In this document: piece after piece, positions 51,296 through 64,000 of the stretch
How the letters are laid out: every line of letters begins with the position of its first letter
Position numbering within the stretch: position 1 is the stretch's first letter
Assembly (NCBI GenBank): GCA_964429135.1
Contig: CAYSAU010000010.1
Span: 5,642 to 69,641 of the forward strand
Direction: 5' to 3'
Length of the DNA stretch: 64,000 bases
DNA from: an uncultured Prolixibacteraceae bacterium
GTDB taxonomy: Bacteria; Bacteroidota; Bacteroidia; Bacteroidales; FEN-979
Notes under the pieces: generated by a model
What the model was told of the DNA's origin: nothing
What the model saw: only the letters and a program-made list of their open reading frames with translations
Databases searched by the model: none
Made by a program: the position numbers and the translations under genes

Positions 51296-52114
51296 ATGAA
51301 AAATCTGAATGTTGAAACTAAAATTCTGTTGACTTTGTTTTTCTTTTTATTACTATCCATGAATAAGATCAGTGCACAGGAGGAAAAACAAAAAGTGGAC
51401 ATGACAGAACTAGCCAAGAAAACCCAGAATCCTGTTGAATCGATGATACAGTTGCCATTCAGCTACTATGGTAATTTTAATTGGGGACCTACTAAGGCGT
51501 TTTCCTCCACCCTTGAAATGAAACCGGTGGTTCCGGTTAAACTCAGTAAAGGATTAAATCTGATCCTTCGTGCCATTGTTCCGGTAGTTTTTCTTCCCAC
51601 ACCGGTTAGCAAGTCTGGTATATCGGATATTCAGCTTCAATTTTTCCTGGCTCCATCCAAAGCGAAAAAGTTTATCTGGGGTGCTGGTCCCATGGTGACC
51701 TTCCCCACGGGTGTGCCTTATGAGCTTTGTTCAGGTAAATGGACTGCCGGTCCTATCGCGGTGGGTTTATTCATGATGAAACGATGGGTGGTAGGCGTAT
51801 TAGCGAATCAGCGGTGGTCCTTTGCCGGAGATGGTTCTATGCCTGACATTAATCAATTATATATCAATGCATTTGCCAACTATAACTTCAAAAATGGATG
51901 GGCAATTTCCTATGCTCCGGAAATTTATGCCAACTGGAAGGAAGCCTCGGCAGATATATGGACAGTACCGGTAGGGCTGGCAGGCATAAAAGCTTTCCAC
52001 ATTGGAAAGCAGATGATGTCAGCAAACCTTGGTTATTATTATAATGTTGTCCGCCCGACAGGAGCCGCCAATATGTATGTAAAAGCAGGAATAAGCCTGT
52101 TATTTCCAAAATGA
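51296..52114 (+). CDS. Outer-membrane beta-barrel channel ('transporter' / MetA-pathway-of-phenol-degradation-like family, from memory)
   Basis: The ATG at 51296 gives a signal peptide ending ...KISAQ. LAKKTQNPVESMIQLPFSYYGNFNWGP....LEMKPVVPV..S.GLNLILRAIVPV fits the L.NP...l..P.q.n...g......l..qPviP...nli.R..vP pattern I recall for this family. It ends in an aromatic-rich strand. Confidence 0.55.
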   Translation: MKNLNVETKILLTLFFFLLLSMNKISAQEEKQKVDMTELAKKTQNPVESMIQLPFSYYGNFNWGPTKAFSSTLEMKPVVPVKLSKGLNLILRAIVPVVFLPTPVSKSGISDIQLQFFLAPSKAKKFIWGAGPMVTFPTGVPYELCSGKWTAGPIAVGLFMMKRWVVGVLANQRWSFAGDGSMPDINQLYINAFANYNFKNGWAISYAPEIYANWKEASADIWTVPVGLAGIKAFHIGKQMMSANLGYYYNVVRPTGAANMYVKAGISLLFPK

Positions 52115-52134
52115 TCAACCAATATCAGAGAAGT

Positions 52135-53877
52135 ATGAAAAAAACAGTAATGATTGTTATTACCTGCCTGTATCTGTTTTCAGGTTCAAGGCTGTGGTCT
52201 CAAACCATCGATCCTGATTTATATCCCGCCTCAGATAACAAGGAATGGGGTCAACTCTTATGGAACCTGAAGCTGGCCGACCAGGACCTCTCAGATTTCA
52301 CACACTACCGTTCGGTCGACCAGCAAGGAGTCAGCGCTAATCGTTATACCATTGCTTTTGCCTCCTATTTTCTGGCGCTGGAGCAGTACCATAAATTCCC
52401 TGCCTGGAGTGAAGCCATTCAACCGGCATTCGACCGGTTGATCCAGAGAATGTTGCAAAAACCTGTATGGGAGTACTGGGCAAACGAGAGCTTCGGGATC
52501 ACCAAATTTGAACCCAATATGGACCGTCCCTATGCCTCCTCCTCCGATCCGGTGGGATATGCAAACATCATGTATTCCGGACATCTGGGGATGATGATCA
52601 ACCTTTACCAGATGCTGTACCACGACATGAAATGGGACAAACCCGGATCCATTGTGTTCCAGTGGGATGAAAAGACACGGTTCGTGTACGACAACAGACG
52701 CTTGCAGGAGGTGATGTTCATTCAGAACATCACCAATCCGGTGCCGGGTATCGAATGCGAACGAAATGCTGTATTCCCTGCCTGCAACACCCATCCCATG
52801 ATCAGCTACTTGTTGTTTGATCAGATGCACAATACCCGTTTTTTCCAAGCAGCCCGCGCGGTGTATGATCCCTGGTGTGAAAAAATCTTTATCAACCCCG
52901 ACACCAAAGATTTTGCCTCTTTTTACCTCATCAAGCAGGGATGGGCCTTTTCGGGATGGAACCCCCGGTATGGCAATAAAATGGATGCGGTGATGGCAGA
53001 GATGGTGAAAAAAGGAGTTGATTTCAACTCAGGAGGTAACGATGGCTGGATCGGCACCTTTATGCATGCCTGGCGTCCTGAATTGATTGAAAACAATTAC
53101 CCCTATCTGAAAAAGAAACATTACAAAGACTTGCCGGGGGGTAAAGCAATGTTGACGAAAGATGTGATCGCTCCGGATTGTTACTATGGTTTCTTCGCAA
53201 CGCTTGCGGCCGAAGTAGGTGATGAAATGGCCAGAGAAGCGCTGTTGAAAACGGTTGACAGCATCTATTCACCGGTGTGGGAAGAGGGCACTTTTCGATA
53301 TCCCTTTATGGATGATGTTCCCACTGTAAACCTGGCTGCAGCTGATGGAGAGAAAAAAACCGAACCCCCGGCAGCCCAGGTTCAAACGCCGGACATTTCG
53401 AAACAGCCGCTTTCCCAACCAAACAAAGGAAAAGAGCCATCCGGTCTCTGTTGTAAATCAACACAAATCAAAGGTCATGGAGATGCCACGAATATGAAAA
53501 CATTCCCGTCTCATTCTGATTTGGCCGATCGTCTGATAGCCATTGCACGGGCGCTTCCGGCAAAAGGATTATACACCATGGTCAACAACCCGTTTGATTC
53601 TGTACACTTTTCGGAACCCGCCATCACAGGGGTGGACATAACCAGGGTGATCCTGAAGAGGGCCGTTTATGACCGAGGGAACAAGTTGCTCATCGTTTCA
53701 ACGATCGGGAAGAAGGATGGGGGAAATACCTCTTTAAAAATAATCAACCTGAACCCATTTAAAACCTATTCCATAGAGATCGATAAAACGCATTACAAGG
53801 ATGTGGTAAATAAACCGGATCATATCATCATCATAGATCCAGGTAAATCACATGATATCATCGTGAGAGAGAAATAA
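52135..53877 (+). CDS. Exported linalool dehydratase/isomerase (Ldi)-like (alpha/alpha)6-barrel protein with extra C-terminal domain
   Basis: Signal peptide MKKTVMIVITCLYLFSGSRLWSQ. RYTIAFASYFLA, NIMYSGHLGMMINLYQML, GIECERNAVFPACNTHPMISYLLFDQMHNT and INPDTKDFASFYL parallel remembered Castellaniella Ldi blocks ([72 protein letters not shown]). Confidence 0.6.
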   Translation: MKKTVMIVITCLYLFSGSRLWSQTIDPDLYPASDNKEWGQLLWNLKLADQDLSDFTHYRSVDQQGVSANRYTIAFASYFLALEQYHKFPAWSEAIQPAFDRLIQRMLQKPVWEYWANESFGITKFEPNMDRPYASSSDPVGYANIMYSGHLGMMINLYQMLYHDMKWDKPGSIVFQWDEKTRFVYDNRRLQEVMFIQNITNPVPGIECERNAVFPACNTHPMISYLLFDQMHNTRFFQAARAVYDPWCEKIFINPDTKDFASFYLIKQGWAFSGWNPRYGNKMDAVMAEMVKKGVDFNSGGNDGWIGTFMHAWRPELIENNYPYLKKKHYKDLPGGKAMLTKDVIAPDCYYGFFATLAAEVGDEMAREALLKTVDSIYSPVWEEGTFRYPFMDDVPTVNLAAADGEKKTEPPAAQVQTPDISKQPLSQPNKGKEPSGLCCKSTQIKGHGDATNMKTFPSHSDLADRLIAIARALPAKGLYTMVNNPFDSVHFSEPAITGVDITRVILKRAVYDRGNKLLIVSTIGKKDGGNTSLKIINLNPFKTYSIEIDKTHYKDVVNKPDHIIIIDPGKSHDIIVREK

Positions 53878-54625: not shown

Positions 54626-56026
54626 ATGAAAAAAATGACAGTCATTCTTTGGGTATGTTTGATCCCCTTGCTTTTTGCAGGGTGCACCCCGAAACCAGCG
54701 GAAAACAAAGCTGAAACCAATGATCCGAATGTTACAAGAACCCTTGCCGCCGTGGCAATGGAGAGTTATGAGACAGGATTGAATAAATACAAGGTGGCCT
54801 TTTATTACTGGTATGACCACCTCATGGACGGGGAAATCCCACCGGCAAATGTGGCTGAAGCGGGCAAAAAACTTGATCTTGCCCTGGCGGAAATCAACGC
54901 CAACTCTTTTGATAAGGCTTATGTCCTGATGAACCAGGCCGATTCCCTGCTGGATGTGCATGTGAAAAGCGACACTCTTTTCCCCTACGAGACCGACAAA
55001 CCCATGGAAAAACAGGATGCTTCGAAGGTTTATAAAGCCAAAGCAAAGGATTACCTGGTGCTGGAACGTTATGGCGTGAAGATGAACGACGTGGGGCCAT
55101 CTATATGGGGATACTGCGACGATGGGGAATACTACCTGATCACCACGTTCTACAACTATCATGCCCGCGGTCATATCATCAAACCAGTAGTTGTGGAAGT
55201 CATAACCACGAAAGATCCCACAAAACGGTATGTTTACCTGCTGAACGGGGAAACAAAAGTGAAATCAAACGAGAACAGCGTTGAATATTTCGTGGAGGAT
55301 GGGGCTAAAAGTTTCCGTACCATTATCACAGATGACCCGATCGGCGGCGGGACAACCTGTCATTCTATTGGGATTTTCGGGGCCGTAGAGGGAAAGGCTC
55401 CGGCAATCAGCTTTGATGTGACTACAACTCCATCGTTTTCCTACTGGTATAACCAGAATCTGGGAGCGGCCATGATGTATCCCGACATCGTCCTGGCCGG
55501 TTTCGAGCAACCCGGACCTGCCTGGGGCACTGTCACCATGGACGGAAAGACTGCAACCTTCAACAAGACAGCCGGCGGAGTCACGGAAGTTTGCATGATC
55601 AGCGGGGCTCCGGGTAAGAAGTACGATGAATACCGCACCAACATGACCAGGTATGGCAACGAATGGTATATCCCCTTCCATTCTGACCAGTTGGACGGGA
55701 TTTTCATCTGCTACGGAAAATTCCGCGACGGGGCCCTCTGGTACAAGGGCAAGTATATCATTCCCACCGAGTACCAACTGATTCCTGGCATAGCAAACCA
55801 AACCCTGACCCTGAAAGCAAAGACGAAGGAGTATGGCGAACTGGTCCTGAATTTCAGGATCATGTTGCACGACCCGGTATATACCGAGCGCGTGGCAGTG
55901 ATGGATGGCAGTTTCGACGGGCAGATCCTTACCAACGGAGGCGCCTGGTTCGAGCATGTGTTCAAGGGAGCGCCCGACGGGATCAAAGCGGTTCAGGAGT
56001 CACCGCAGATCGTAAATCCCTTGTAG
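54626..56026 (+). CDS. Lipoprotein of unknown family, paralog A
   Basis: Lipobox LLFAGC. An N-terminal helical region is followed by a beta-rich region. It shares blocks with the next gene (YGNEWYIPFHSDQ, GKYIIP, NGGAWFEH). Confidence 0.65.
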   Translation: MKKMTVILWVCLIPLLFAGCTPKPAENKAETNDPNVTRTLAAVAMESYETGLNKYKVAFYYWYDHLMDGEIPPANVAEAGKKLDLALAEINANSFDKAYVLMNQADSLLDVHVKSDTLFPYETDKPMEKQDASKVYKAKAKDYLVLERYGVKMNDVGPSIWGYCDDGEYYLITTFYNYHARGHIIKPVVVEVITTKDPTKRYVYLLNGETKVKSNENSVEYFVEDGAKSFRTIITDDPIGGGTTCHSIGIFGAVEGKAPAISFDVTTTPSFSYWYNQNLGAAMMYPDIVLAGFEQPGPAWGTVTMDGKTATFNKTAGGVTEVCMISGAPGKKYDEYRTNMTRYGNEWYIPFHSDQLDGIFICYGKFRDGALWYKGKYIIPTEYQLIPGIANQTLTLKAKTKEYGELVLNFRIMLHDPVYTERVAVMDGSFDGQILTNGGAWFEHVFKGAPDGIKAVQESPQIVNPL

Positions 56027-56089: not shown

Positions 56090-57391
56090 ATGAAAAGTAA
56101 ATTTTACCTGCTGTTTTTCTTCACCGGAATGGGACTGCTGATCAACGGCGGCTGTTCAACCCAGCCAAAGCTTACCAAAGAAGAAGCCACCCAGAAGCTG
56201 GCTGACCTTAAAATGAAATATGATATTGCAAACACCCAGTGGTATGATATTTATAACCAGGGACTGATTCCCGGGGCTGAAGAAGCCGGCAAGTTTATTG
56301 TGCAGGCGCAAAATGCCCTGGATTCAGGAGAGATGAAAAAGGCAGAAGCCCTGATTGTTCAGGCCGATACGTTACTGAAGACCTATACCATGGCCAACCT
56401 GCCCGATTACGATCCGCCGACTCCGCTGGCCAATCCTGCCGATCACGGCAAAGTGCACAAGGCCACCTTACAGGATCTAAGGTCCATGGAGTTTTATGGT
56501 GTTCCGAGATGGAATTACTGGTTCAATTTTGTTGGGAAAGCCGACGACGAAACCCTGTACATGGCATATGCCTACATCAACCATCATGGTACTGGAAAGA
56601 TCACCCCACCCATTGTTTTTGCCATGAGTACGAGCAAAGACCCTTCCAATATTCTGAAGGTGAAATTCACCGGTGAGCCTACGCTGAAAGACACGAAAGA
56701 TGCGCGTATCTGGATTGTCAGGGAGGATGATAAAACATTAACATACACTTTAAAAGATGGCAAAGTGGGGATTAAATTCGAGTCAAAAGAGCTTACCGTG
56801 GATGTGGCCTCCGTCATGCAGTATTCGTTCTGGTACAACAAGAATGTAAATTATGCCGAGATGATGCCGGGAGCCCCCATGGCGGGGTTTGAAGAGACCG
56901 GTGCCGCGGAGGGTTACTTTCTGATAAACGGTGAGAAAATCCCTGTAAAAGGCTTTGGAGAATCCGAGAACCTGTTTTGCGGTGGCAAAGGAGTTGACTA
57001 TCGCAGTGCGCTGATCAAATATGGAAACGAATGGTGGGTGCCATTCCACTCCGATCAGGCTCAGGGGCTAATCTGCATGACTGGAAAATATAAGGATGCA
57101 GGCCTATACCTCAACGGGAAATATGTGGTCCCTTCATCGGTTGAAGTGGTGCCGATTGAAGCGAACAAATCTTTCAAACTGAACCTGAAGACTTCGGAAG
57201 GAGATCTTGACCTGATTATCACTTGCTGGGGATGGGATCCTCCGCTGTATGAACATTGGGCCACCTGTGAAGGGACTTTCAACGGACAAAACCTTACCAA
57301 CGGCTATGCATGGCTGGAGCACATCCCGCAGGGAGGAGTGAACAATAGTCCTCCGGTTGGAGGAAGAAAAGGATTACCAGAGAAAAAGTAA
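56090..57391 (+). CDS. Lipoprotein of unknown family, paralog B
   Basis: Lipobox LINGGC. It shares blocks with paralog A (YGNEWWVPFHSDQ, GKYVVP, NGYAWLEH, and the N-terminal WYD...IP...EAGK helix). Confidence 0.65.
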   Translation: MKSKFYLLFFFTGMGLLINGGCSTQPKLTKEEATQKLADLKMKYDIANTQWYDIYNQGLIPGAEEAGKFIVQAQNALDSGEMKKAEALIVQADTLLKTYTMANLPDYDPPTPLANPADHGKVHKATLQDLRSMEFYGVPRWNYWFNFVGKADDETLYMAYAYINHHGTGKITPPIVFAMSTSKDPSNILKVKFTGEPTLKDTKDARIWIVREDDKTLTYTLKDGKVGIKFESKELTVDVASVMQYSFWYNKNVNYAEMMPGAPMAGFEETGAAEGYFLINGEKIPVKGFGESENLFCGGKGVDYRSALIKYGNEWWVPFHSDQAQGLICMTGKYKDAGLYLNGKYVVPSSVEVVPIEANKSFKLNLKTSEGDLDLIITCWGWDPPLYEHWATCEGTFNGQNLTNGYAWLEHIPQGGVNNSPPVGGRKGLPEKK

Positions 57392-57392
57392 T

Positions 57393-59621
57393 TCAGGATT
57401 TTTTTATTTTCTCCGACGAAAGCAGGATCACCTCGCTGGTGGCAGGTAAAGCAAAATCAGGTTCGTTCTGATGCCCGTCGATGGCTGAAATGGCATCTTT
57501 AATGGCTAACCATACGGAGAGTCCGAGCATAAAAGGCGGCTCTCCGATGGCTTTGCTTTTCAGAATGGTACCAGGGTTTGGAACATGTTTCAATATTTCT
57601 ACCCTGAAATCTTTGGGAATGTCGTTAATGGTTGGGATCTTATAGGTATCGGGAGAATGGGTCAGTAAATTCCCTGTTTTATCCCATTTGATTTCTTCGG
57701 TGGTGCACCATCCTACACCCTGAACAAAACCACCCTGTATCTGTCCCAGGTCGATCGCTTCGTTGATGGAATCCCCCGCGTCCTGAACAATATCGGTACG
57801 CAGCAGACTGTACTGCCCGGTCAGGGTATCAATCATAACTTCTGATACTGCCATCCCGTAAGAGAAATAGAAGAATGGTTTTCCCTGTCCGCTTTCACGA
57901 TCGAAAAAAATACCCGGGGTCCTATAGTAACCTGTAGCGCTCAGGCTTATCTGGCTGAGATGAGCCAGTTTGCATAATTCATCAAAAGGGGTTGTGAGGG
58001 GGAGATTTTCTTTTTCAGATAGTTCTTTCAGCCTTGCTTTGATTTTTTCTATGGCATTTTTTACCGCCATGCCATTGATATCACTACCGGAAGATGCTGC
58101 AGTGGGAGAGGTGTTCGGCACCTTGGAGGTATTGGTGGCATTCACTTTGATTCGATCAGCAGAAATACCTAGTTCAATGGCTGCAATCTGTTGCATTTTA
58201 GTGTGTAGACCTTGCCCCATTTCCGTACCTCCATGATTGACGAGAACGCTTCCGTCTGTGTAAATATTTACCAGGGCTCCGGCTTGGTTAAGGAAGGATG
58301 AGGTAAAGGATATCCCGAATTTTACCGGCATCATAGCTAGGCCTTTTTTGCAGAATTCGTGTTTAGCGTTGAACTTTTCTATTCCTGCCCTGCGTTCAGA
58401 ATATCCGGATGATTTCATCAGCTTCTCATACATTAGGAACAATCGGTTGTTCTCTATTTCCTGGCCATAAGGAGTCAGGTTATTGTGCTCAGACTGGTAA
58501 AAATTCAGCAAACGGAGGTCTGTAGCATCTTTTCTCAGGAACCTGGCCATGCGGTCGATGGCATTTTCAATCACAGCCATACCCTGGGGGCCGCCGAATC
58601 CGCGAAAAGCAGTGTTTGATGGGAGATTGGTCCTCCAGGCTTGCCCTGTGATGCTGACGGAAGGGATGAAATAGGCATTATCGGCATGAAGCATTGCTCT
58701 TTCAAGGATGGCCCGGGAAAGATCCGTAGATGATCCGGCATCAGAATTTAATTCAACTTTGTAAGCCAGGATCAATCCCTTTTCATTAAAACCGATTTCA
58801 TAACGCGATAAAAACCGATGTCTTTTCCCGGTCATAATCTGATCATTATCACGGGAAAGGTGAATTTTTACCGGTCTTTGGGTGGCATTGGCCAGAAGAG
58901 AAGCCCAGGCAGCCACATGGTTTCCCTGGGTTTCTTTTCCCCCGAAGCCCCCTCCCAGGCGTTTTACTTCCACTTCCACTTCGTTTTTTGCGATACCCAG
59001 TACTTCTGCTACGATGGCCTGTGTTTCGGATGGATTCTGGCTGGAAGCAAACACCTTCATTTCCCTGCCTTCCCCGGGCATAGCCAGGGCGGTCTGGGTT
59101 TCCAGGTACCAGTGCTCTTGTGCTCCGGTTTTTAATTCTCCTCGGATCACATGAGGACAATTTTCCATGGCGGTTTCAGCGTTGCCTCTTTCAATTTTAC
59201 GGACCGGGGCGATCAGATTATTTTTAATAATGGCTGATTCAAGGTCTAAGATGGCCTCCAGGGGTTCATAGTCAATGAGGATAAGCTTTTCAGCTTTCAT
59301 CGCGGCTTCTTCATTTTCAGCGGCGATCAGGGCAATAGCCTGACCAATAAAAGTGGTTTCTGATTTTGCCAGACAGGGTTCGTCATGTATGATTGGTCCC
59401 ATCTGGTTTTCACCGGGGATGTCAGAAGCGGTAAGCACAGCATGAACACCTTGAACTTTCCGCGCTTCTGAAACATCAATCCGGAGAATTCCTGCATGGG
59501 CATGAGGACTGAATACGACTTTCCCCAGTAGCAATTGTTCATTCACCAGCATGTCGTCAATATAAACCGATTCGCCGGTTACATGCCGGATGGCGCTGTC
59601 ATGACGGAGTGGTATCGACAT
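57393..59621 (-). CDS. xdhB: Xanthine dehydrogenase molybdopterin-binding subunit
   Basis: 742 aa. HVTGESVYIDD, RLGGGFGGKETQ, FRGFGGPQG, GGTEMGQGLHTK and the KAIGEPPFMLG C-terminal blocks are typical of the XDH large subunit. The start overlaps the xdhA stop by 23 nt. Confidence 0.9.
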   Translation of the reverse strand: MSIPLRHDSAIRHVTGESVYIDDMLVNEQLLLGKVVFSPHAHAGILRIDVSEARKVQGVHAVLTASDIPGENQMGPIIHDEPCLAKSETTFIGQAIALIAAENEEAAMKAEKLILIDYEPLEAILDLESAIIKNNLIAPVRKIERGNAETAMENCPHVIRGELKTGAQEHWYLETQTALAMPGEGREMKVFASSQNPSETQAIVAEVLGIAKNEVEVEVKRLGGGFGGKETQGNHVAAWASLLANATQRPVKIHLSRDNDQIMTGKRHRFLSRYEIGFNEKGLILAYKVELNSDAGSSTDLSRAILERAMLHADNAYFIPSVSITGQAWRTNLPSNTAFRGFGGPQGMAVIENAIDRMARFLRKDATDLRLLNFYQSEHNNLTPYGQEIENNRLFLMYEKLMKSSGYSERRAGIEKFNAKHEFCKKGLAMMPVKFGISFTSSFLNQAGALVNIYTDGSVLVNHGGTEMGQGLHTKMQQIAAIELGISADRIKVNATNTSKVPNTSPTAASSGSDINGMAVKNAIEKIKARLKELSEKENLPLTTPFDELCKLAHLSQISLSATGYYRTPGIFFDRESGQGKPFFYFSYGMAVSEVMIDTLTGQYSLLRTDIVQDAGDSINEAIDLGQIQGGFVQGVGWCTTEEIKWDKTGNLLTHSPDTYKIPTINDIPKDFRVEILKHVPNPGTILKSKAIGEPPFMLGLSVWLAIKDAISAIDGHQNEPDFALPATSEVILLSSEKIKKS

Positions 59622-61053
59622 AAAATTTCAATAAAAGATTTTTCCCTACTTTCTTTCTGTACTCAGCTTCAGAACGGGCGTCGGAAATAGGATTAAATTC
59701 TTCTTCAATACAAGGCATAGCTTTTTCAACGTTAGACCTTGACCACTTCTTACCCCTAAGAAAACCTTCTGTCTTAACAGCACGTTTGGTCATGGCCGCC
59801 ATTCCGCCATAGGCTATAAAGATTTCGGAGATCAATCCGTTTATGAGGATAATCCTGAAAGCCCCGCTGACCGTTGATATGTCAAGATCTTTCCGCTTCG
59901 ACACCTTGTAGGATTTGATGAGGTCGTTAGGACCGGGCTTTGGAATGCGGATTTCTGTGATCAGTTCGTTATGGTTCAAATCAGTCTGACGGTAACCTGT
60001 AATGAAAGTCTCGATGGGTAATATTCTCTTGGATGAGGAGGAACGCAGCACCACGACTGCCTTAGATACAAATAACAGCGGAAGGAGGTCGCCGATGGGA
60101 GAGGCAGTACCCACATTTCCGCCGATGGTGGCCAGGTTCCTGATTTGCAGGGAGCCGAAAACCTTCAGCATGTCGTGCAATGCCGGAAGCTTCCCGGCAA
60201 CGTAATGTTTCAGTTGTTCCAATGACAGACCGGCGCCAATAACAAATTCGGATTTGTTTTCCTTCCAGGTTTTCAATCCCCCCACTGCCGACAGATCAAG
60301 GATCTCCTTCAGGATTTCTTTTTTCTTTGTTTGTCGCAATGCCACATCAGTAGAGCCATTGATCACTATTGCTTCCGGGAATTCATGTCGTAGCCTTAAG
60401 GCTTCTGATACGGAAAAAGGTTTATAATACGTCTGTACAGGGGTTCTGATCTCAATGGTTTCTTTGTTTTCATTAATGGAGCTTAATAAGGCAAGGGTTT
60501 CTTTTTCTTGGTCTGAAAAATGATCTTTCCCCTGATTTTTACAGGCTTTCTGAGCAGCTTCAAGGATAGTCTGATAACCTGTACAACGACAGAGATTCCC
60601 GGTCAGGGCATCTTCAATGATTTCCCTTGAAGGCTGATGATGGTTTTTGTACAGGCCAAACAGCGACATGATGATGCCGGGAGTACAGTAACCGCATTGG
60701 GTTCCACTCGTTTCTATCAGCATTTGCTGAACCGGATGAAGCATTTGCTTGCCCTTGAAAATTTTTGCCAGGTTTTCCACAGTAATCAATTGTTTGCCGT
60801 GGATCATGGGCAGGAAGACCAGGCAGGAATCCAGGGTTTTATAGACCAGCTCTCCATGGCTGTTCATCTCTGCTACAACGATGGTACAGGCTCCGCAATC
60901 TCCTTCGGCACAACCTTCTTTAACGCCTTTGTGAGAAGGGTAAGAACGAAGGTAATTCAGCACGGTGGTAGTGGGTCTCAGCTCAGAAGATTTGCGGAAA
61001 TCAATTTCCGTGATTTTATCATCAAGCACAAACTTAATCGTTTGCTGTACCAT
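59599..61053 (-). CDS. xdhA: Xanthine dehydrogenase small subunit (2x[2Fe-2S] + FAD-binding domain)
   Basis: CAEGDCGACTV and CGYCTPG...CRCTGY are Fe-S motifs. They are followed by a CO-dehydrogenase-flavoprotein-like FAD domain (NGSTDV, ATIGGNVGTASPIGD). Confidence 0.9.
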   Translation of the reverse strand: MVQQTIKFVLDDKITEIDFRKSSELRPTTTVLNYLRSYPSHKGVKEGCAEGDCGACTIVVAEMNSHGELVYKTLDSCLVFLPMIHGKQLITVENLAKIFKGKQMLHPVQQMLIETSGTQCGYCTPGIIMSLFGLYKNHHQPSREIIEDALTGNLCRCTGYQTILEAAQKACKNQGKDHFSDQEKETLALLSSINENKETIEIRTPVQTYYKPFSVSEALRLRHEFPEAIVINGSTDVALRQTKKKEILKEILDLSAVGGLKTWKENKSEFVIGAGLSLEQLKHYVAGKLPALHDMLKVFGSLQIRNLATIGGNVGTASPIGDLLPLLFVSKAVVVLRSSSSKRILPIETFITGYRQTDLNHNELITEIRIPKPGPNDLIKSYKVSKRKDLDISTVSGAFRIILINGLISEIFIAYGGMAAMTKRAVKTEGFLRGKKWSRSNVEKAMPCIEEEFNPISDARSEAEYRKKVGKNLLLKFYVDTTPS

Positions 61054-61058
61054 TATTC

Positions 61059-61835
61059 TTAACCGTTGTTATGTACCAATGTATTCCTGACATCGATCAG
61101 TCTGGCCAGAATACTGATGGCGATTTCCTGAGGGGTTTCTACCTTGAATTTGATTCCGATGGGCATGTCGATCTGATTAATTTCTTCAGGAGTAAGCAGT
61201 TCCTCTTTCAGAAAACGTCTGGTAGCAGTTTCAACTTTACGTTTACTGCCAAGCATTCCCAGATATGCATGGGGTTTACGGGCGACCCTGAGCAGAATCT
61301 CTTCGTCATAGGCATGTTTTGGCGTTACGATGACGATGTATGTATTCAGGTCGAAAATGATTTCTTCGATGGCCTGGAAATAATCATGGTTTAAACATTT
61401 GCAGTGCTGAAAGCATGGATCCTGAAATATAGTATCTCTCGGATCAATGACTGTTACCAAAAAATCAAGTTCTTTTGCAAAGCTGGATAATGCTTTCCCG
61501 ATATGGCCGGCTCCGAAAATGTATAATTTTTGAGTCGGATTGATGGGTTCGATATACACCTCCATAAACCCTCCGCAGTGCATGGTCAGGTCTTCTTCAA
61601 GCTGAAAGGAAATTTTTTCGGGTTTTCCGGAAATAATGATTTCTGATGCTTTTGACGCAACTTCTTTTTCAACAGTTCCCCCACCGATACTGCCAAAGAT
61701 TTTCCCATCTCCGTAAACGATCATTTTCGATCCTTCTTTTCTGGGAGTGGAACCCCGGGTTTCAATGATGATACAAAGCGCTGCAGGAATCTGTGCGTTG
61801 ATAATCTCTTCTATTTTTGACAATATCTTTTGCAT
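61059..61835 (-). CDS. xdhC: XdhC/CoxI family Moco-insertion accessory protein
   Basis: ETRGSTPRKEGSKM, GSIGGG, the Rossmann-like IFGAGHIGKAL, and the LGMLGSKRK block. Confidence 0.85.
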   Translation of the reverse strand: MQKILSKIEEIINAQIPAALCIIIETRGSTPRKEGSKMIVYGDGKIFGSIGGGTVEKEVASKASEIIISGKPEKISFQLEEDLTMHCGGFMEVYIEPINPTQKLYIFGAGHIGKALSSFAKELDFLVTVIDPRDTIFQDPCFQHCKCLNHDYFQAIEEIIFDLNTYIVIVTPKHAYDEEILLRVARKPHAYLGMLGSKRKVETATRRFLKEELLTPEEINQIDMPIGIKFKVETPQEIAISILARLIDVRNTLVHNNG

Positions 61836-61915
61836 GGTTGTTTGATGATAATGACCAAGGCTGAGTGTAAAATTACATAATAAAGTGAAATAGTAATAAA
61901 TTAGCAGGTTAAATC

Positions 61916-63655
61916 ATGTTCCTGATGCAGCATATTCCCTTTCCCCCGCTTCGGGCTATCTGGCTGAAAGCCGCCGTAGTGGGAAGTTTATGGGCATCAG
62001 TGGAGATCATCCTGGGCAGTTTTCTTCACAATCTGCGTATCCCATTCTCAGGTGCGATTTTATCTTTTTTCGGAGTTTACCTGATCATTTCATTTTTTCA
62101 AATCTGGAAAGAACGCGGGCTGATATGGAGAGCCGGTCTGATCTGTGCATTGATGAAATCCATTTCTCCCAGTGCCATCATCCTGGGGCCCATGTTCGGG
62201 ATCATGACGGAAGCTTTCCTCTTGGAGCTTTTTATTTTATTGTTTGGAAAAAATTTACTGGGATATATTGCCGGTGGAGCTTTTGCAGTGTTATCCACCC
62301 TGATGCAAAAAGTAATCAATCTATTGATTCTTTACGGATTGGACCTGGTACAGATTTTCAAAGGAATGTATGTTTTTTTTATCCGCCAGCTCAGGCTTTC
62401 CGATCCTCATCCGGTTTGCTTGCTTATTTTCATTGCTGCACTGTATTTATTGGCCGGGGTGATTGCAGCTGTTTTGGGTTACCGTTCAGGCAAACGTTAT
62501 CTCAGCCAACAGAAAACAGGAGAAACAACAAAAACAGTTTCCTTTCAAGCCGTAAGTTTGGTTAGATCAACCGGGAAACCAGGCACTTATTCCATCTATA
62601 GCCTTGTTTTCGCTATGTTTTCTATGAGCCTCTGTCTTCTTCTTCTCAATAACGATTGGATCATTCCTGCTCTGATAGTTGCCTCTTTTTTCCTGGGATT
62701 TAGCTTTTTTCGCTACGGAAGATCTTTAAAACGTCTGATGAAACTGGCTTTATGGCTGCAGTTTTTTCTGATTACTTTCCTGGCTTCGTTTTTATGGAAT
62801 AGTATCGCCGGAAATGCATTTTTCAGCATGGATGGTTTGATGGTGGGTCTGAAAATGATATTCAGAGCCATCCTTTTTATTACGGGCTTTTCTGTTATTA
62901 GTATTGAATTGAGAAATCCTTTGATCAAATCCATATTGTATAAAAAAGGATTTTCAAGTTTATATCAGTCCTTATCTCTTTCTTTTTCTGCATTACCGGG
63001 AATAATCTCATCCATGCCGGAATCAAAGGTCTTGCTGAAAAATCCTTTTCGGGCTTTTTCTGTTCTCTTACAGCAAGCGGAAGGTTTGCTGCAGCAGTTT
63101 GAAACAGACCATCGTATGAGGCCTTCTGTCATCATTATAACTGGTGACATTCAGCAGGGGAAGACGAGTTTTGTCAAGGTCATTATTCAGCACCTTCAGC
63201 AAAAGAAATACCGGATTTCGGGATTTTTAGCTTTGGCAGTGATGGAAGGTGAATATCGGTCTGGATTTGACCTGTATAATATTCAAACCTCAGAGATGAC
63301 AGGGTTGTGTACTTTAAAGCCGACTCATGGCTGGATAAAACAAGGTTCTTTTTATTTCAATCCGCTTGGATTACAAAAGGGAAATGAAATTTTGTCCGGT
63401 ATTATTTCCGATCATGCTCATTTAGTCGTGGTTGATGAAGTTGGTCCTTTAGAATTATCGAATCAGGGCTGGGCGAAAGCAATGGGTGATTTATGCCAGA
63501 CAACTCAGATTCCTCAACTTTGGGTGGTTAGGAAAAGCTTGGTGGATAAAGTCGCCAGAAACTGGAATGTCGGAGATGTATTTATTTTTGATATCGTGAA
63601 CGATACCAGTGAAGCGGTGATCAACAAACTGGAAGATCTTTTTCAATCAGTCTAA
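61916..63655 (+). CDS. Fusion protein: polytopic membrane domain (about aa 1-395) + C-terminal P-loop NTPase (THEP1/DUF2478-like)
   Basis: About 8-9 hydrophobic helices, then Walker A GDIQQGKT (nt 63143-63166) and Walker B LVVVDEVGPLE. Divergent from xdhC and convergent with the mocA-like gene, overlapping it. Confidence 0.7.
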   Translation: MFLMQHIPFPPLRAIWLKAAVVGSLWASVEIILGSFLHNLRIPFSGAILSFFGVYLIISFFQIWKERGLIWRAGLICALMKSISPSAIILGPMFGIMTEAFLLELFILLFGKNLLGYIAGGAFAVLSTLMQKVINLLILYGLDLVQIFKGMYVFFIRQLRLSDPHPVCLLIFIAALYLLAGVIAAVLGYRSGKRYLSQQKTGETTKTVSFQAVSLVRSTGKPGTYSIYSLVFAMFSMSLCLLLLNNDWIIPALIVASFFLGFSFFRYGRSLKRLMKLALWLQFFLITFLASFLWNSIAGNAFFSMDGLMVGLKMIFRAILFITGFSVISIELRNPLIKSILYKKGFSSLYQSLSLSFSALPGIISSMPESKVLLKNPFRAFSVLLQQAEGLLQQFETDHRMRPSVIIITGDIQQGKTSFVKVIIQHLQQKKYRISGFLALAVMEGEYRSGFDLYNIQTSEMTGLCTLKPTHGWIKQGSFYFNPLGLQKGNEILSGIISDHAHLVVVDEVGPLELSNQGWAKAMGDLCQTTQIPQLWVVRKSLVDKVARNWNVGDVFIFDIVNDTSEAVINKLEDLFQSV

Positions 63656-64000
63656 GGAAGTCCTCATAGTCCTCCGGGGTATTGATATTCCAATGAATTC
63701 TTTGATCGGGGAAGGGAACTTCTTTCCGGGGAAACATCTTTAATGCTTCCTTCAGATTGTTCATATTGTTTATTGACTGCAGATACTGACAGACTTTATC
63801 CCCCAGAAGGATGGGATGTCCTCCTTTCCCTTCATGCACGGGAACGACATATCCATCAGGTTGAAGGAATTCGGATAGTTTCCCCAGTAAGCCGGATTCA
63901 ACAAAAGGATTATCGACATTTTGCAGAAAACAGGCCCGGCCTGGTAAAATCTGTCTCAGGCCTAGTTGAATGGAATGATAACGACCGAGATCAGGCTGAG
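63621..64000 (-). CDS. MobA-like NTP transferase (MocA/YgfJ-type molybdenum cofactor cytidylyltransferase-like), C-terminal part; CDS continues beyond the window
   Basis: Manual translation upstream of the track ORF stays open to 64000: ...LGRYHSIQLGLRQILPGRACFLQNVDNPFVESGLLGKLSEFLQPDGYVVPVHEGKGGHPILLG... This fits the MobA/MocA pattern (D.P.v......L....vvP...G..GHP.l). The track's M is really an internal GTG (Val). Confidence 0.7.
   Translation of the reverse strand, partial: QPDLGRYHSIQLGLRQILPGRACFLQNVDNPFVESGLLGKLSEFLQPDGYVVPVHEGKGGHPILLGDKVCQYLQSINNMNNLKEALKMFPRKEVPFPDQRIHWNINTPEDYEDFLRLIEKDLPVC

Follow-up and report, generated by a model that had tools for sequence, protein, structure and literature searches.

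The 64,000-nucleotide (nt) stretch of DNA analysed here, which we call the window, comes from an uncultured Prolixibacteraceae bacterium (assembly GCA_964429135.1, contig CAYSAU010000010.1), and near its right end it carries a gene for a polytopic membrane protein that is fused to a C-terminal P-loop NTPase of the THEP1/NTPase_1 type. The coordinates of this gene and of its neighbours, several of which are molybdenum-cofactor (Moco) genes, are collected in Table 1. The encoded protein begins with about ten transmembrane (TM) helices, which are followed by a helical linker and then by the NTPase; the fusion of a polytopic membrane domain to a P-loop NTPase with the Walker A motif GDIQQGKT and a Walker B motif, which had been proposed in the initial annotation of this DNA, is confirmed. 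Because the homologue alignments begin at the second ATG of the open reading frame (ORF), at position 61925 (Met4), and the public gene call (P0001) also starts at Met4, the true protein is probably 576 amino acids (aa) long.

Table 1. Features of the fusion gene and its neighbours in the window (positions are those of the window; residue numbers are those of the protein)
Feature	Position	Strand	Basis or remark
Fusion ORF, 579 aa	61916..63655	+	Stop codon 63653-63655
Membrane domain, aa 14-332	61955..62911	+	AlphaFold2 helices, positive-inside analysis
Signature motif K81-S-I-S-P-S-A87	62156..62176	+	Best-conserved stretch of the family (columns invariant or nearly so in alignments A1 and A3)
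Putative cytoplasmic helical linker, aa 333-400	62912..63115	+	E331/N334/P335 hinge, amphipathic helices 335-400 (AlphaFold2)
THEP1/NTPase_1 domain, aa 401-579	63116..63652	+	Pfam, NCBIfam, PDB sequence and fold matches
Walker A GDIQQGKT, G410-T417	63143-63166	+	Consensus GxxxxGK[ST]
Walker B LVVVDE, L503-E508	63422-63439	+	Consensus hhhhDE with catalytic Glu (ASCE class)
Divergent intergenic region xdhC/fusion gene, 80 nt	61836..61915		Presumed site of both promoters
xdhC-family Moco chaperone gene, 258 aa	61059..61835	-	Pfam XdhC_CoxI and XdhC_C
xdhA, 484 aa	59599..61053	-	TIGR02963, 520.9 bits (cut-off 467)
xdhB, 742 aa	57393..59621	-	TIGR02965, 993.9 bits (cut-off 849.5)
MocA/YgfJ-like NTP_transf_3 gene, 3' part (199 aa in full)	63621..beyond 64000	-	Pfam, NCBIfam

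The fusion is a genuine gene that is widely conserved in bacteria. Among 5.8 billion proteins searched, 2,075 relatives of the fusion protein were found, and the best 120 of these are 563-620 aa long, cover 96-100% of the query and are 47-100% identical to it. Relatives are also encoded by 555 of 600 metagenome candidate stretches, the mean column identity in an alignment of 47 sequences (alignment A1) is 61%, and an Acidobacteriota genome (locus L094, GCA_018001935.1) has a fused 615-aa homologue that is named there as a DUF2478 protein. An independent 81.9-kb contig at 50x depth covers positions 61800-63750 with 11 substitutions and zero indels, and no joints or indels were seen at the domain boundary in four runs from different studies. 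The source metagenomes are from sediment, wastewater, sludge and food production and come from several studies; the runs that carry the sequence are DNA metagenomes only. The initial annotation had allowed that two separate genes might have been joined here by misassembly or a frameshift. Split versions do occur elsewhere (below), although the split in L093 is probably only apparent, a frameshifted fusion with a 585-aa member in its 90% identity cluster. Full-length relatives of the window protein number more than 120, however, with identities of 47-100%, and together with the indel-free independent contig they rule out such an artefact for the window gene, which we regard as refuted.

The C-terminal domain matches the Pfam family NTPase_1 (PF03266) at residues 406-571 with an E-value of 7e-19 and a score of 68.7 bits (gathering cut-off 23.9), in an alignment that spans profile positions 2-166 of 168. 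DUF2478 (PF10649), which had been named together with THEP1 as the likely type of this domain, is borderline: the whole protein scores 18.8 bits and its C-terminal half 22.7 bits, with a gathering threshold of 22.3. Some relatives carry a precomputed DUF2478 match, but NTPase_1 is clearly the better model for the window domain, and the THEP1 part of the earlier assignment is supported. The NCBIfam equivalog model of the soluble stand-alone NTPase (PRK13695) scores 66.7-70.6 bits, below its cut-off of 156. Sequence matches in the PDB are to Aquifex THEP1 (1YE8, E 7.8e-12) and human NTPCR (2I3B, E 1.1e-8), and the predicted structure of the domain, whose predicted local distance difference test (pLDDT) score is 80-92, matches 2I3B in Foldseek with E 3.3e-5, probability 1.00 and a TM-score of 0.66 on the target. 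By these profile and fold matches the domain belongs to a diverged, membrane-tethered subfamily of THEP1/NTPase_1 (COG1618).

Residues G410, G415, K416, D507 and E508 are invariant in all 47 sequences of alignment A1, and E508 aligns with Glu107 of Aquifex THEP1, the catalytic Glu of that enzyme (PMC2700126). Since its Walker motifs and catalytic Glu are intact, the window NTPase is predicted to be catalytically competent. Isolated THEP1 and human NTPCR turn over just 20-30 ATP or GTP per hour, and their in vivo role has not been established since 2003 (PMC2700126); turnover this slow in the isolated proteins suits an NTPase that depends on a partner. Several other kinds of P-loop protein were considered for this domain and rejected. 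The MobB models cover about 30 residues around Walker A only and score far below their cut-offs (PF03205, 12.6-14.6 versus 26.6 bits; TIGR00176, 12.3 versus 76.2 bits). A YqeC-type P-loop protein, for which a search with TIGR03172 had been suggested, finds no support, as that model is absent from the NCBIfam matches at E<=1 of both the whole protein and its C-terminal half. An ATP-binding cassette (ABC) ATPase finds no support, as the Pfam search gave no ABC_tran match, and FeoB is opposed by the lack of any match at E<=1 to the Pfam models of its G domain (FeoB_N) or its membrane domain and by the ASCE rather than TRAFAC type of the NTPase.

The membrane domain was modelled with AlphaFold2 on the 47-sequence alignment (mean pLDDT 77.4, predicted template modelling score 0.67). 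The model has ten predicted TM helices, at residues 14-40, 45-64, 69-82, 90-110, 114-140, 166-199, 227-245, 249-275, 277-297 and 305-332, and besides these an amphipathic helix at 144-159. The first 395 or so residues had been described as almost entirely hydrophobic helices; this holds for the N-terminal ~333 residues but not for residues 333-400, which are predicted to form the amphipathic linker. This linker travels with the membrane protein where the two parts are encoded by separate genes, and the domain boundary is near residue 400. Averaged over the alignment, Lys plus Arg content is high at the N-terminus and at residues 61-73, 190-230, 264-280 and 328-350 and is near zero at 242-252 and 294-308, a distribution from which we infer a topology with both termini inside and helix 144-159 on the outer face.

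Conservation is higher in the membrane domain than in the NTPase. In an alignment (A3) of 37 diverse stand-alone TM-only sequences that are 34-46% identical, residues A19, W26, E30, I31, G34, H38, P43, G46, W64, K81, S84, I96, E99, G181, R317, A318, E331 and P361 are invariant. The signature motif, K81-S-x-S-P-S-A, is a low-pLDDT break between helices 69-82 and 90-110, and in the topology model it lies with H38 and N39 at the outer face, with E30 and E99 in mid-membrane. Strongly conserved charged and polar residues within TM helices are typical of a transporter or membrane enzyme and not of a simple anchor, and by this arrangement, in a model of moderate confidence, E30, H38, E99 and K81-S-x-S-P-S are a candidate ligand-binding or transport site, of a kind that a mere anchor would not be expected to have.

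To what kind of membrane protein might this domain belong? Residues 1-395 have no Pfam or NCBIfam match at E<=1, and Pfam searches at E<=10 with the 37 TM-only members gave no recurring family. In sequence-profile searches of the PDB with alignments A1 and A3 the NTPase was the sole part matched, and Foldseek searches of the PDB with the full and the TM-only models gave no credible fold for the membrane domain: the best TM-score is about 0.2, to unrelated proteins of the major facilitator superfamily (MFS), ABC and GT-C types, and all matches of the TM-only model (pLDDT 64.4, below that of the same region in the full model) have E>0.01. There is also no sign of an internal duplication of the TM domain in hhalign comparisons of sub-alignments (probabilities <=1.2%). 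By all of these searches the membrane domain belongs to no described family. The suggestion that the membrane half might resemble an energy-coupling factor (ECF) or CbiQ-like transporter component was not borne out. A diverged ECF-type (S plus T components) or ABC-type vitamin or metal transporter in which the ABC ATPase has been replaced would share with the window protein a multi-helix N-terminal half, a helical half with cytoplasmic amphipathic helices and an NTPase, which is a general analogy only, and a single TM-only sequence of the 37 matched CbiQ (E=6.5). The searches just described otherwise gave no profile, PDB-sequence or meaningful fold match to ECF S and T components or ABC permeases. 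As far as homology can be detected, such a transporter is effectively refuted, and it is very improbable overall.

The two parts of the protein are also found apart. When 1.84 billion representative proteins were searched with the membrane half, 932 clusters matched at E<=1e-3, and 296 of them reached E<=1e-30; about one quarter of the top 150 matches are only 385-411 aa long and have the membrane domain and linker alone. A profile search found at least 3,756 clusters (90% identity), mostly of such "hypothetical proteins" of ~400 aa in metagenome-assembled genomes of Bacteroidales, Bacteroidota and Lentimicrobiaceae. Beside these stand-alone genes there is often an NTPase_1 gene, in either order. 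Among the loci whose surroundings we analysed (labelled with L numbers), one has a TM gene followed by an NTPase_1 gene (L089), one has the NTPase gene followed by an overlapping TM gene (L095), one has the order NTPase, MobA, TM (L096), and two have a stand-alone TM protein without an adjacent NTPase (L090 and L092). Fused, split and permuted forms of two genes are classical evidence that their products act as a complex. On this comparative evidence the membrane protein and the NTPase constitute one two-part module, and we infer that they are physically coupled.

The gene context of the module was surveyed in 96 loci with crude ORF calls, clustering by BLAST and profile hidden Markov models, and the loci were dereplicated at 90% identity to 69 groups; for L094 (a high-GC Acidobacteriota locus) and L002 the context was taken from existing gene calls and tblastn instead. 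Eighty of the loci are from metagenomes and are skewed towards close relatives of the window protein, and many of the contigs are short. A scan of genome contigs with a single-sequence query contributed three loci, and a scan of viral contigs for further loci found none. The arrangement in the window, in which the fusion gene lies between xdhC and a mocA-like gene and which the initial annotation had proposed to survey, is present in only ~12 of 88 loci, all in one sub-clade, but bona fide Moco genes occur in 26 of the 69 groups (within two genes of the module in 17), NifX-like genes occur in 29, and one or the other is present in 49. No link to selD or selenium, for which co-occurrence had also been suggested, was seen in any locus surveyed.

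Three kinds of context recur. In the commonest (type A, 29 of the 69 groups) a ~129-aa NifX-like protein of the Nitro_FeMo-Co family is encoded directly upstream of the module on the same strand, 22-166 nt away; before it there are usually genes for OsmC, DUF134, an S-adenosylmethionine (SAM) methyltransferase, AhpC, ferritin or Fur, and the module is followed by convergent genes for a thioredoxin-fused pyridine-nucleotide-disulfide oxidoreductase, a radical SAM protein and thioredoxins. The NifX-like protein best matches the C-terminal domain of MrpORP (its top NCBIfam match) and TM1290/TM1816, and it matches ORP weakly (2WFB, E 0.0048). Nitro_FeMo-Co domains are known to bind metalloclusters, among them the Fe-S clusters of MrpORP (PMC6345978). 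In type B, nine groups whose proteins are 47-100% identical to the window protein, xdhC is divergent upstream and there is usually a convergent MocA-like gene downstream with an overlap of 17-35 nt. In type C (L005, L030, L036, L057/58 and L081/82) the module is adjacent to Psr/Phs-like molybdopterin oxidoreductases with NrfD and 4Fe-4S subunits. The loci with stand-alone membrane genes supply the most informative arrangements: a MobA-like gene, a TM gene that overlaps it by 4 nt and a PhsA-like enzyme with a twin-arginine translocation (Tat) signal (L090/91); an NTPase gene, a MobA-like gene, a TM gene that overlaps by 17 nt, PsrABC-like genes, two Sulf_transp genes and a rhodanese gene (L096); and a MocA-like gene followed by TM and NTPase genes (L089).

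MobA/MocA-type genes lie within one gene of the module in 11 of the 69 groups and in three arrangements, three of them with overlapping reading frames, and the subtype of the nucleotidyltransferase tracks the adjacent enzyme, with MocA-like proteins beside xanthine dehydrogenase (XDH) and MobA-like proteins beside enzymes of the type that uses bis-molybdopterin guanine dinucleotide (bis-MGD). Position statistics were calculated from loci of at least eight genes. NTP_transf_3 genes lie within two genes of the module in 9 of 12 cases (3.4 expected, p=0.001), NifX-like genes in 21 of 24 (6.0 expected, p=2e-10) and the Moco set as a whole in 21 of 44 (12.4 expected, p=0.005), and the control genes for AhpC, methyltransferase and radical SAM proteins are unenriched (p 0.67-0.95). 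The linkage of the module to MobA/MocA, XdhC, molybdoenzyme and NifX-like genes is non-random.

In the window itself, xdhA and xdhB score above the NCBI equivalog cut-offs of their families and encode a bona fide xanthine dehydrogenase, which has no Tat signal (N-termini inspected). The XdhC-family protein scores 206.6 bits with NF045664 and 139.9 bits with TIGR02964, and the MocA-like protein 98.5 bits with the DVU_1551 family and 96.5 bits with MocA_YgfJ (TIGR03310), each below its cut-off. The fusion gene is read away from xdhC and towards the MocA-like gene, and the 3' ends of these two converging genes overlap by 35 nt. A scan of the flanks for sigma-70 promoters found three sites versus 5.0 expected, with a tool that does not cover Bacteroidota promoters, and a terminator scan found nothing above chance, with a tool unsuited to Bacteroidota.

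What might the module do? We favour, tentatively and as a reading that could well be right without yet being probable, an NTPase-coupled membrane module that acts at a late stage in the maturation of molybdenum-cofactor, and more broadly metallocofactor, enzymes. Its partners would be the MobA/MocA-type nucleotidyltransferases together with cofactor carriers, which would be XdhC in the window and the NifX-like protein in most relatives. Binding and hydrolysis of NTP at the cytoplasmic face would drive or gate the passage of a molybdenum species through the membrane domain, or its hand-over there, and the species might be molybdate or tungstate, or else a Mo-pterin, either the cofactor or a precursor. 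The neighbouring Moco genes are those of late steps only, with no early Moco or mod gene among them, which would be compatible both with salvage of a Mo-pterin species and with uptake of molybdenum or tungsten. The gene linkage suggests involvement in Moco maturation; that the module transports anything, and what its substrate would be, is speculation on our part. The initial annotation had suggested that the protein could couple import or handling of Mo, Se, S or a cofactor precursor to hydroxylase maturation. Such import is conceivable, and adjacency to MobA/MocA, XdhC and molybdoenzyme genes agrees in part with a maturation role, but the linkage is not specific to XDH or to hydroxylases and the NifX-like protein is the commonest partner.

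A number of observations weigh against this assignment. The evidence is comparative and computational throughout. In 43 of the 69 groups the stretches retrieved contain no bona fide Moco gene, though many contigs are short, and the annotated recurrent neighbour clusters include no moa, moe, mog or mod gene and no periplasmic binding protein. The commonest context (NifX-like, OsmC, DUF134, thioredoxins, AhpC, Fur and ferritin) is not specific to molybdenum, and the Nitro_FeMo-Co domain of MrpORP binds Fe-S clusters. In the window, the proposed position between xdhC and mocA is correct in that both genes flank the fusion gene, but both are on the minus strand, so the fusion gene is co-transcribed with neither. 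No structural relative backs a transporter fold, the TM-only model has a pLDDT of only 64, and two mid-membrane glutamates (E30 and E99) are unexpected for an oxyanion site. The stand-alone TM loci sampled number five or six out of thousands.

A bolder form of the same proposal is that the module is the first membrane component of late Moco maturation and represents a new class of NTP-energised transporter that is driven by a THEP1 (ASCE) NTPase in place of an ABC, P-type or G-protein engine, which would import or salvage a Mo/W oxyanion or a Mo-pterin cofactor and hand it to MobA/MocA and the carriers (XdhC or the NifX-like protein); we consider this form rather unlikely. Bacterial Moco biosynthesis and insertion are regarded as soluble, cytoplasmic processes, with the exception of molybdate uptake. 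Our literature search found no polytopic membrane protein described in the late Moco steps (nucleotide attachment and chaperoned insertion), a 2026 review of the Moco sulfido ligand mentions neither a membrane protein nor an NTPase, and a search on THEP1/DUF2478/PF03266, DVU_1551 and MocA/XdhC found no description of the module, in keeping with the initial annotation, which knew of no described role for such a fusion.

Could the Moco genes be incidental? The module might instead have nothing to do with cofactor maturation and respond to thiol/redox or metal(loid) stress as an NTPase-coupled membrane transporter or sensor, with a thiophilic metal, an oxyanion of the tellurite, selenite or arsenite type or a sulfur species as its possible cargo, and its adjacency to Moco genes might be secondary, for example through sulfur-respiring Psr/Phs operons that lie in the same stress and sulfur islands. 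The genes of the majority context (OsmC, AhpC/Prx, Fur, ferritin, thioredoxins and the radical SAM protein) would suit such a role, as would the thioredoxin-fused pyridine-nucleotide-disulfide oxidoreductase, which is present in 31 of the 69 groups and lies within two genes of the module more often than expected (17 observed versus 9.4, p=0.006). A SAM methyltransferase with a weak TehB match, genes for ArsR, Thioredoxin_3, DsbD_2, ArsP and cation efflux in the context, genes for Aminotran_5, rhodanese, Sulf_transp and DsrC/DsrE nearby, and the DUF4213/DUF364 "putative heavy-metal chelation" gene that overlaps the fusion gene in Acidobacteriota point the same way. This idea leaves unexplained, however, why MobA/MocA genes are translationally coupled to the module in three independent arrangements and why MocA-type proteins are paired with XDH and MobA-type proteins with bis-MGD-type enzymes, and the AhpC, methyltransferase and radical SAM genes are not enriched in position beside the module. 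We judge it unlikely, though it deserves to be taken seriously.

Somewhat less plausible still, in our estimation, is a membrane-anchored adaptor or scaffold comparable to MobB that transports nothing, in which the THEP1 domain would be a nucleotide switch that recruits MobA/MocA and cofactor chaperones to the membrane and so coordinates cofactor insertion, possibly near the Tat machinery, with the TM domain as its anchor or as a platform to which partners bind. The very slow, switch-like turnover of THEP1 and NTPCR would fit such a role; the trio of NTPase, MobA and TM genes in L096 recalls mobA-mobB, tatC is directly downstream of the stand-alone TM gene in L092 and L095, and PhsA-like enzymes with Tat signals are adjacent in some loci. 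On the other hand, the TM domain is better conserved than the NTPase and has invariant charged residues in its helices, which is excessive for an anchor, the window XDH lacks a Tat signal, the stand-alone TM protein sometimes has no adjacent NTPase (L090 and L092), and homology to MobB does not extend beyond the P-loop (12-15 bits versus cut-offs of 26.6 and 76.2).

Comparison with known systems gives several partial likenesses to the module. THEP1 (Aquifex aeolicus AQ_1292, 1YE8) and NTPCR (HCR-NTPase, 2I3B) are homologous to the C-terminal ~175 aa and share the ASCE P-loop fold, the Walker motifs and the catalytic Glu, but they are soluble, single-domain proteins of ~170-190 aa, whereas the window NTPase is tethered to a 400-aa polytopic membrane protein (or is encoded beside it in relatives). 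MobB, the GTP-binding adaptor of MobA in MGD synthesis, is likewise a small P-loop NTPase that is genetically paired with a MobA-type nucleotidyltransferase, as in L096, and a late Moco role is plausible, but MobB is soluble and has no membrane partner. In FeoB and ArsAB a cytoplasmic non-ABC P-loop NTPase is fused to (FeoB) or docked on (ArsA on ArsB) a membrane domain for a metal or oxyanion, and ArsAB, like the window module, occurs with and without its ATPase; however, FeoB is a TRAFAC GTPase with the opposite domain order and ArsA is a SIMIBI ATPase, and neither sequence nor fold similarity of their membrane domains to that of the window was detected. The E. coli yge/ygf set (YqeB, YqeC and YgfJ), accessory to selenium-dependent molybdenum hydroxylases, resembles the window in having XdhC-family and MocA/YgfJ-like genes beside a P-loop protein and a molybdenum hydroxylase, but the window P-loop protein is not YqeC, its XDH is of the TIGR02963/TIGR02965 type and not Se-dependent, and a membrane protein is included. 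ECF and ABC importers are alike only by analogy, having a cytoplasmic NTPase and multi-helix membrane parts, and neither half of the window protein is homologous to them or matches their folds.

If the favoured role in late cofactor maturation were confirmed, the module would be an added component of molybdoenzyme maturation and a new membrane protein family, possibly with a new mode of energy coupling, and it would give the THEP1/NTPCR NTPases, the human protein included, their first concrete functional context. The family is large and unannotated, has no Pfam domain in its membrane part and is repeatedly, sometimes translationally, coupled to MobA/MocA. It is found beside XDH or Psr/Phs-type enzymes in uncultured, anaerobic Bacteroidales, which abound in sediment, sludge and wastewater.

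Several further features of these loci deserve mention. The xdh operon of the window (57393-61835, minus strand) starts with the chaperone gene (xdhC-xdhA-xdhB), and its xdhA and xdhB overlap by 23 nt; the order in Rhodobacter capsulatus is xdhABC. The nearby MocA-like gene hints at a molybdopterin cytosine dinucleotide cofactor for the window XDH; in Rhodobacter this XDH subtype uses plain Mo-molybdopterin. The convergent 3' overlap between the fusion gene and the MocA-like gene (63621-63655) is also found in L003 and L009-L013 and is 35 nt long in the window and 17 nt in distant relatives; its conservation could reflect antisense or transcriptional-interference coupling, or mere compaction. 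Beyond the window end the MocA-like gene is followed by genes for a DUF362 protein (390 aa), a DUF6599 protein (285 aa) and a histidine kinase (L001, 12359-15675), and the DUF362-DUF6599 pair is kept in the three closest genomes (L001, L002 and L003). On the other side of the xdh operon, two tandem paralogous lipoprotein genes (54626-56026 and 56090-57391, plus strand) lie between an Ldi-like gene (52111-53877, PF18566) and xdhB. Their products, of 466 and 433 aa, have a lipobox Cys, are 31% identical (E 2e-61), match no Pfam or NCBIfam family and have in common the motif YGNEW(Y/W)(I/V)PFHSDQ.

Among the relatives, the NifX-like gene is directly upstream of the module in L007, L008, L028, L029, L060 and others and is usually preceded by OsmC and/or DUF134 genes, and a representative of its product (L060) has a Cys/His-rich C-terminal tail (...SSCHQHEAHQHEGGAHACSHN). 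The recurrent convergent cluster downstream of the module (31 of the 69 groups, including L006-L008, L019, L033, L036, L038, L041, L053, L054 and L066/67) comprises the thioredoxin-fused pyridine-nucleotide-disulfide oxidoreductase (422 aa), a radical SAM/Fer4_12 protein (~445 aa), a membrane-anchored thioredoxin (~140 aa), a SAM methyltransferase (~218 aa) and often a 67-aa YgaP-like TM protein, and it is apparently uncharacterised. In L094 (6202-8848) the overlapping DUF4213/DUF364 gene precedes the fusion gene, a partner unlike those in Bacteroidota. Finally, in two unrelated contigs (L092, 2096-4535, and L095, 8253-10749) the tatC gene directly downstream of the stand-alone TM gene is followed by PspC-like and LiaF-like membrane-stress genes.

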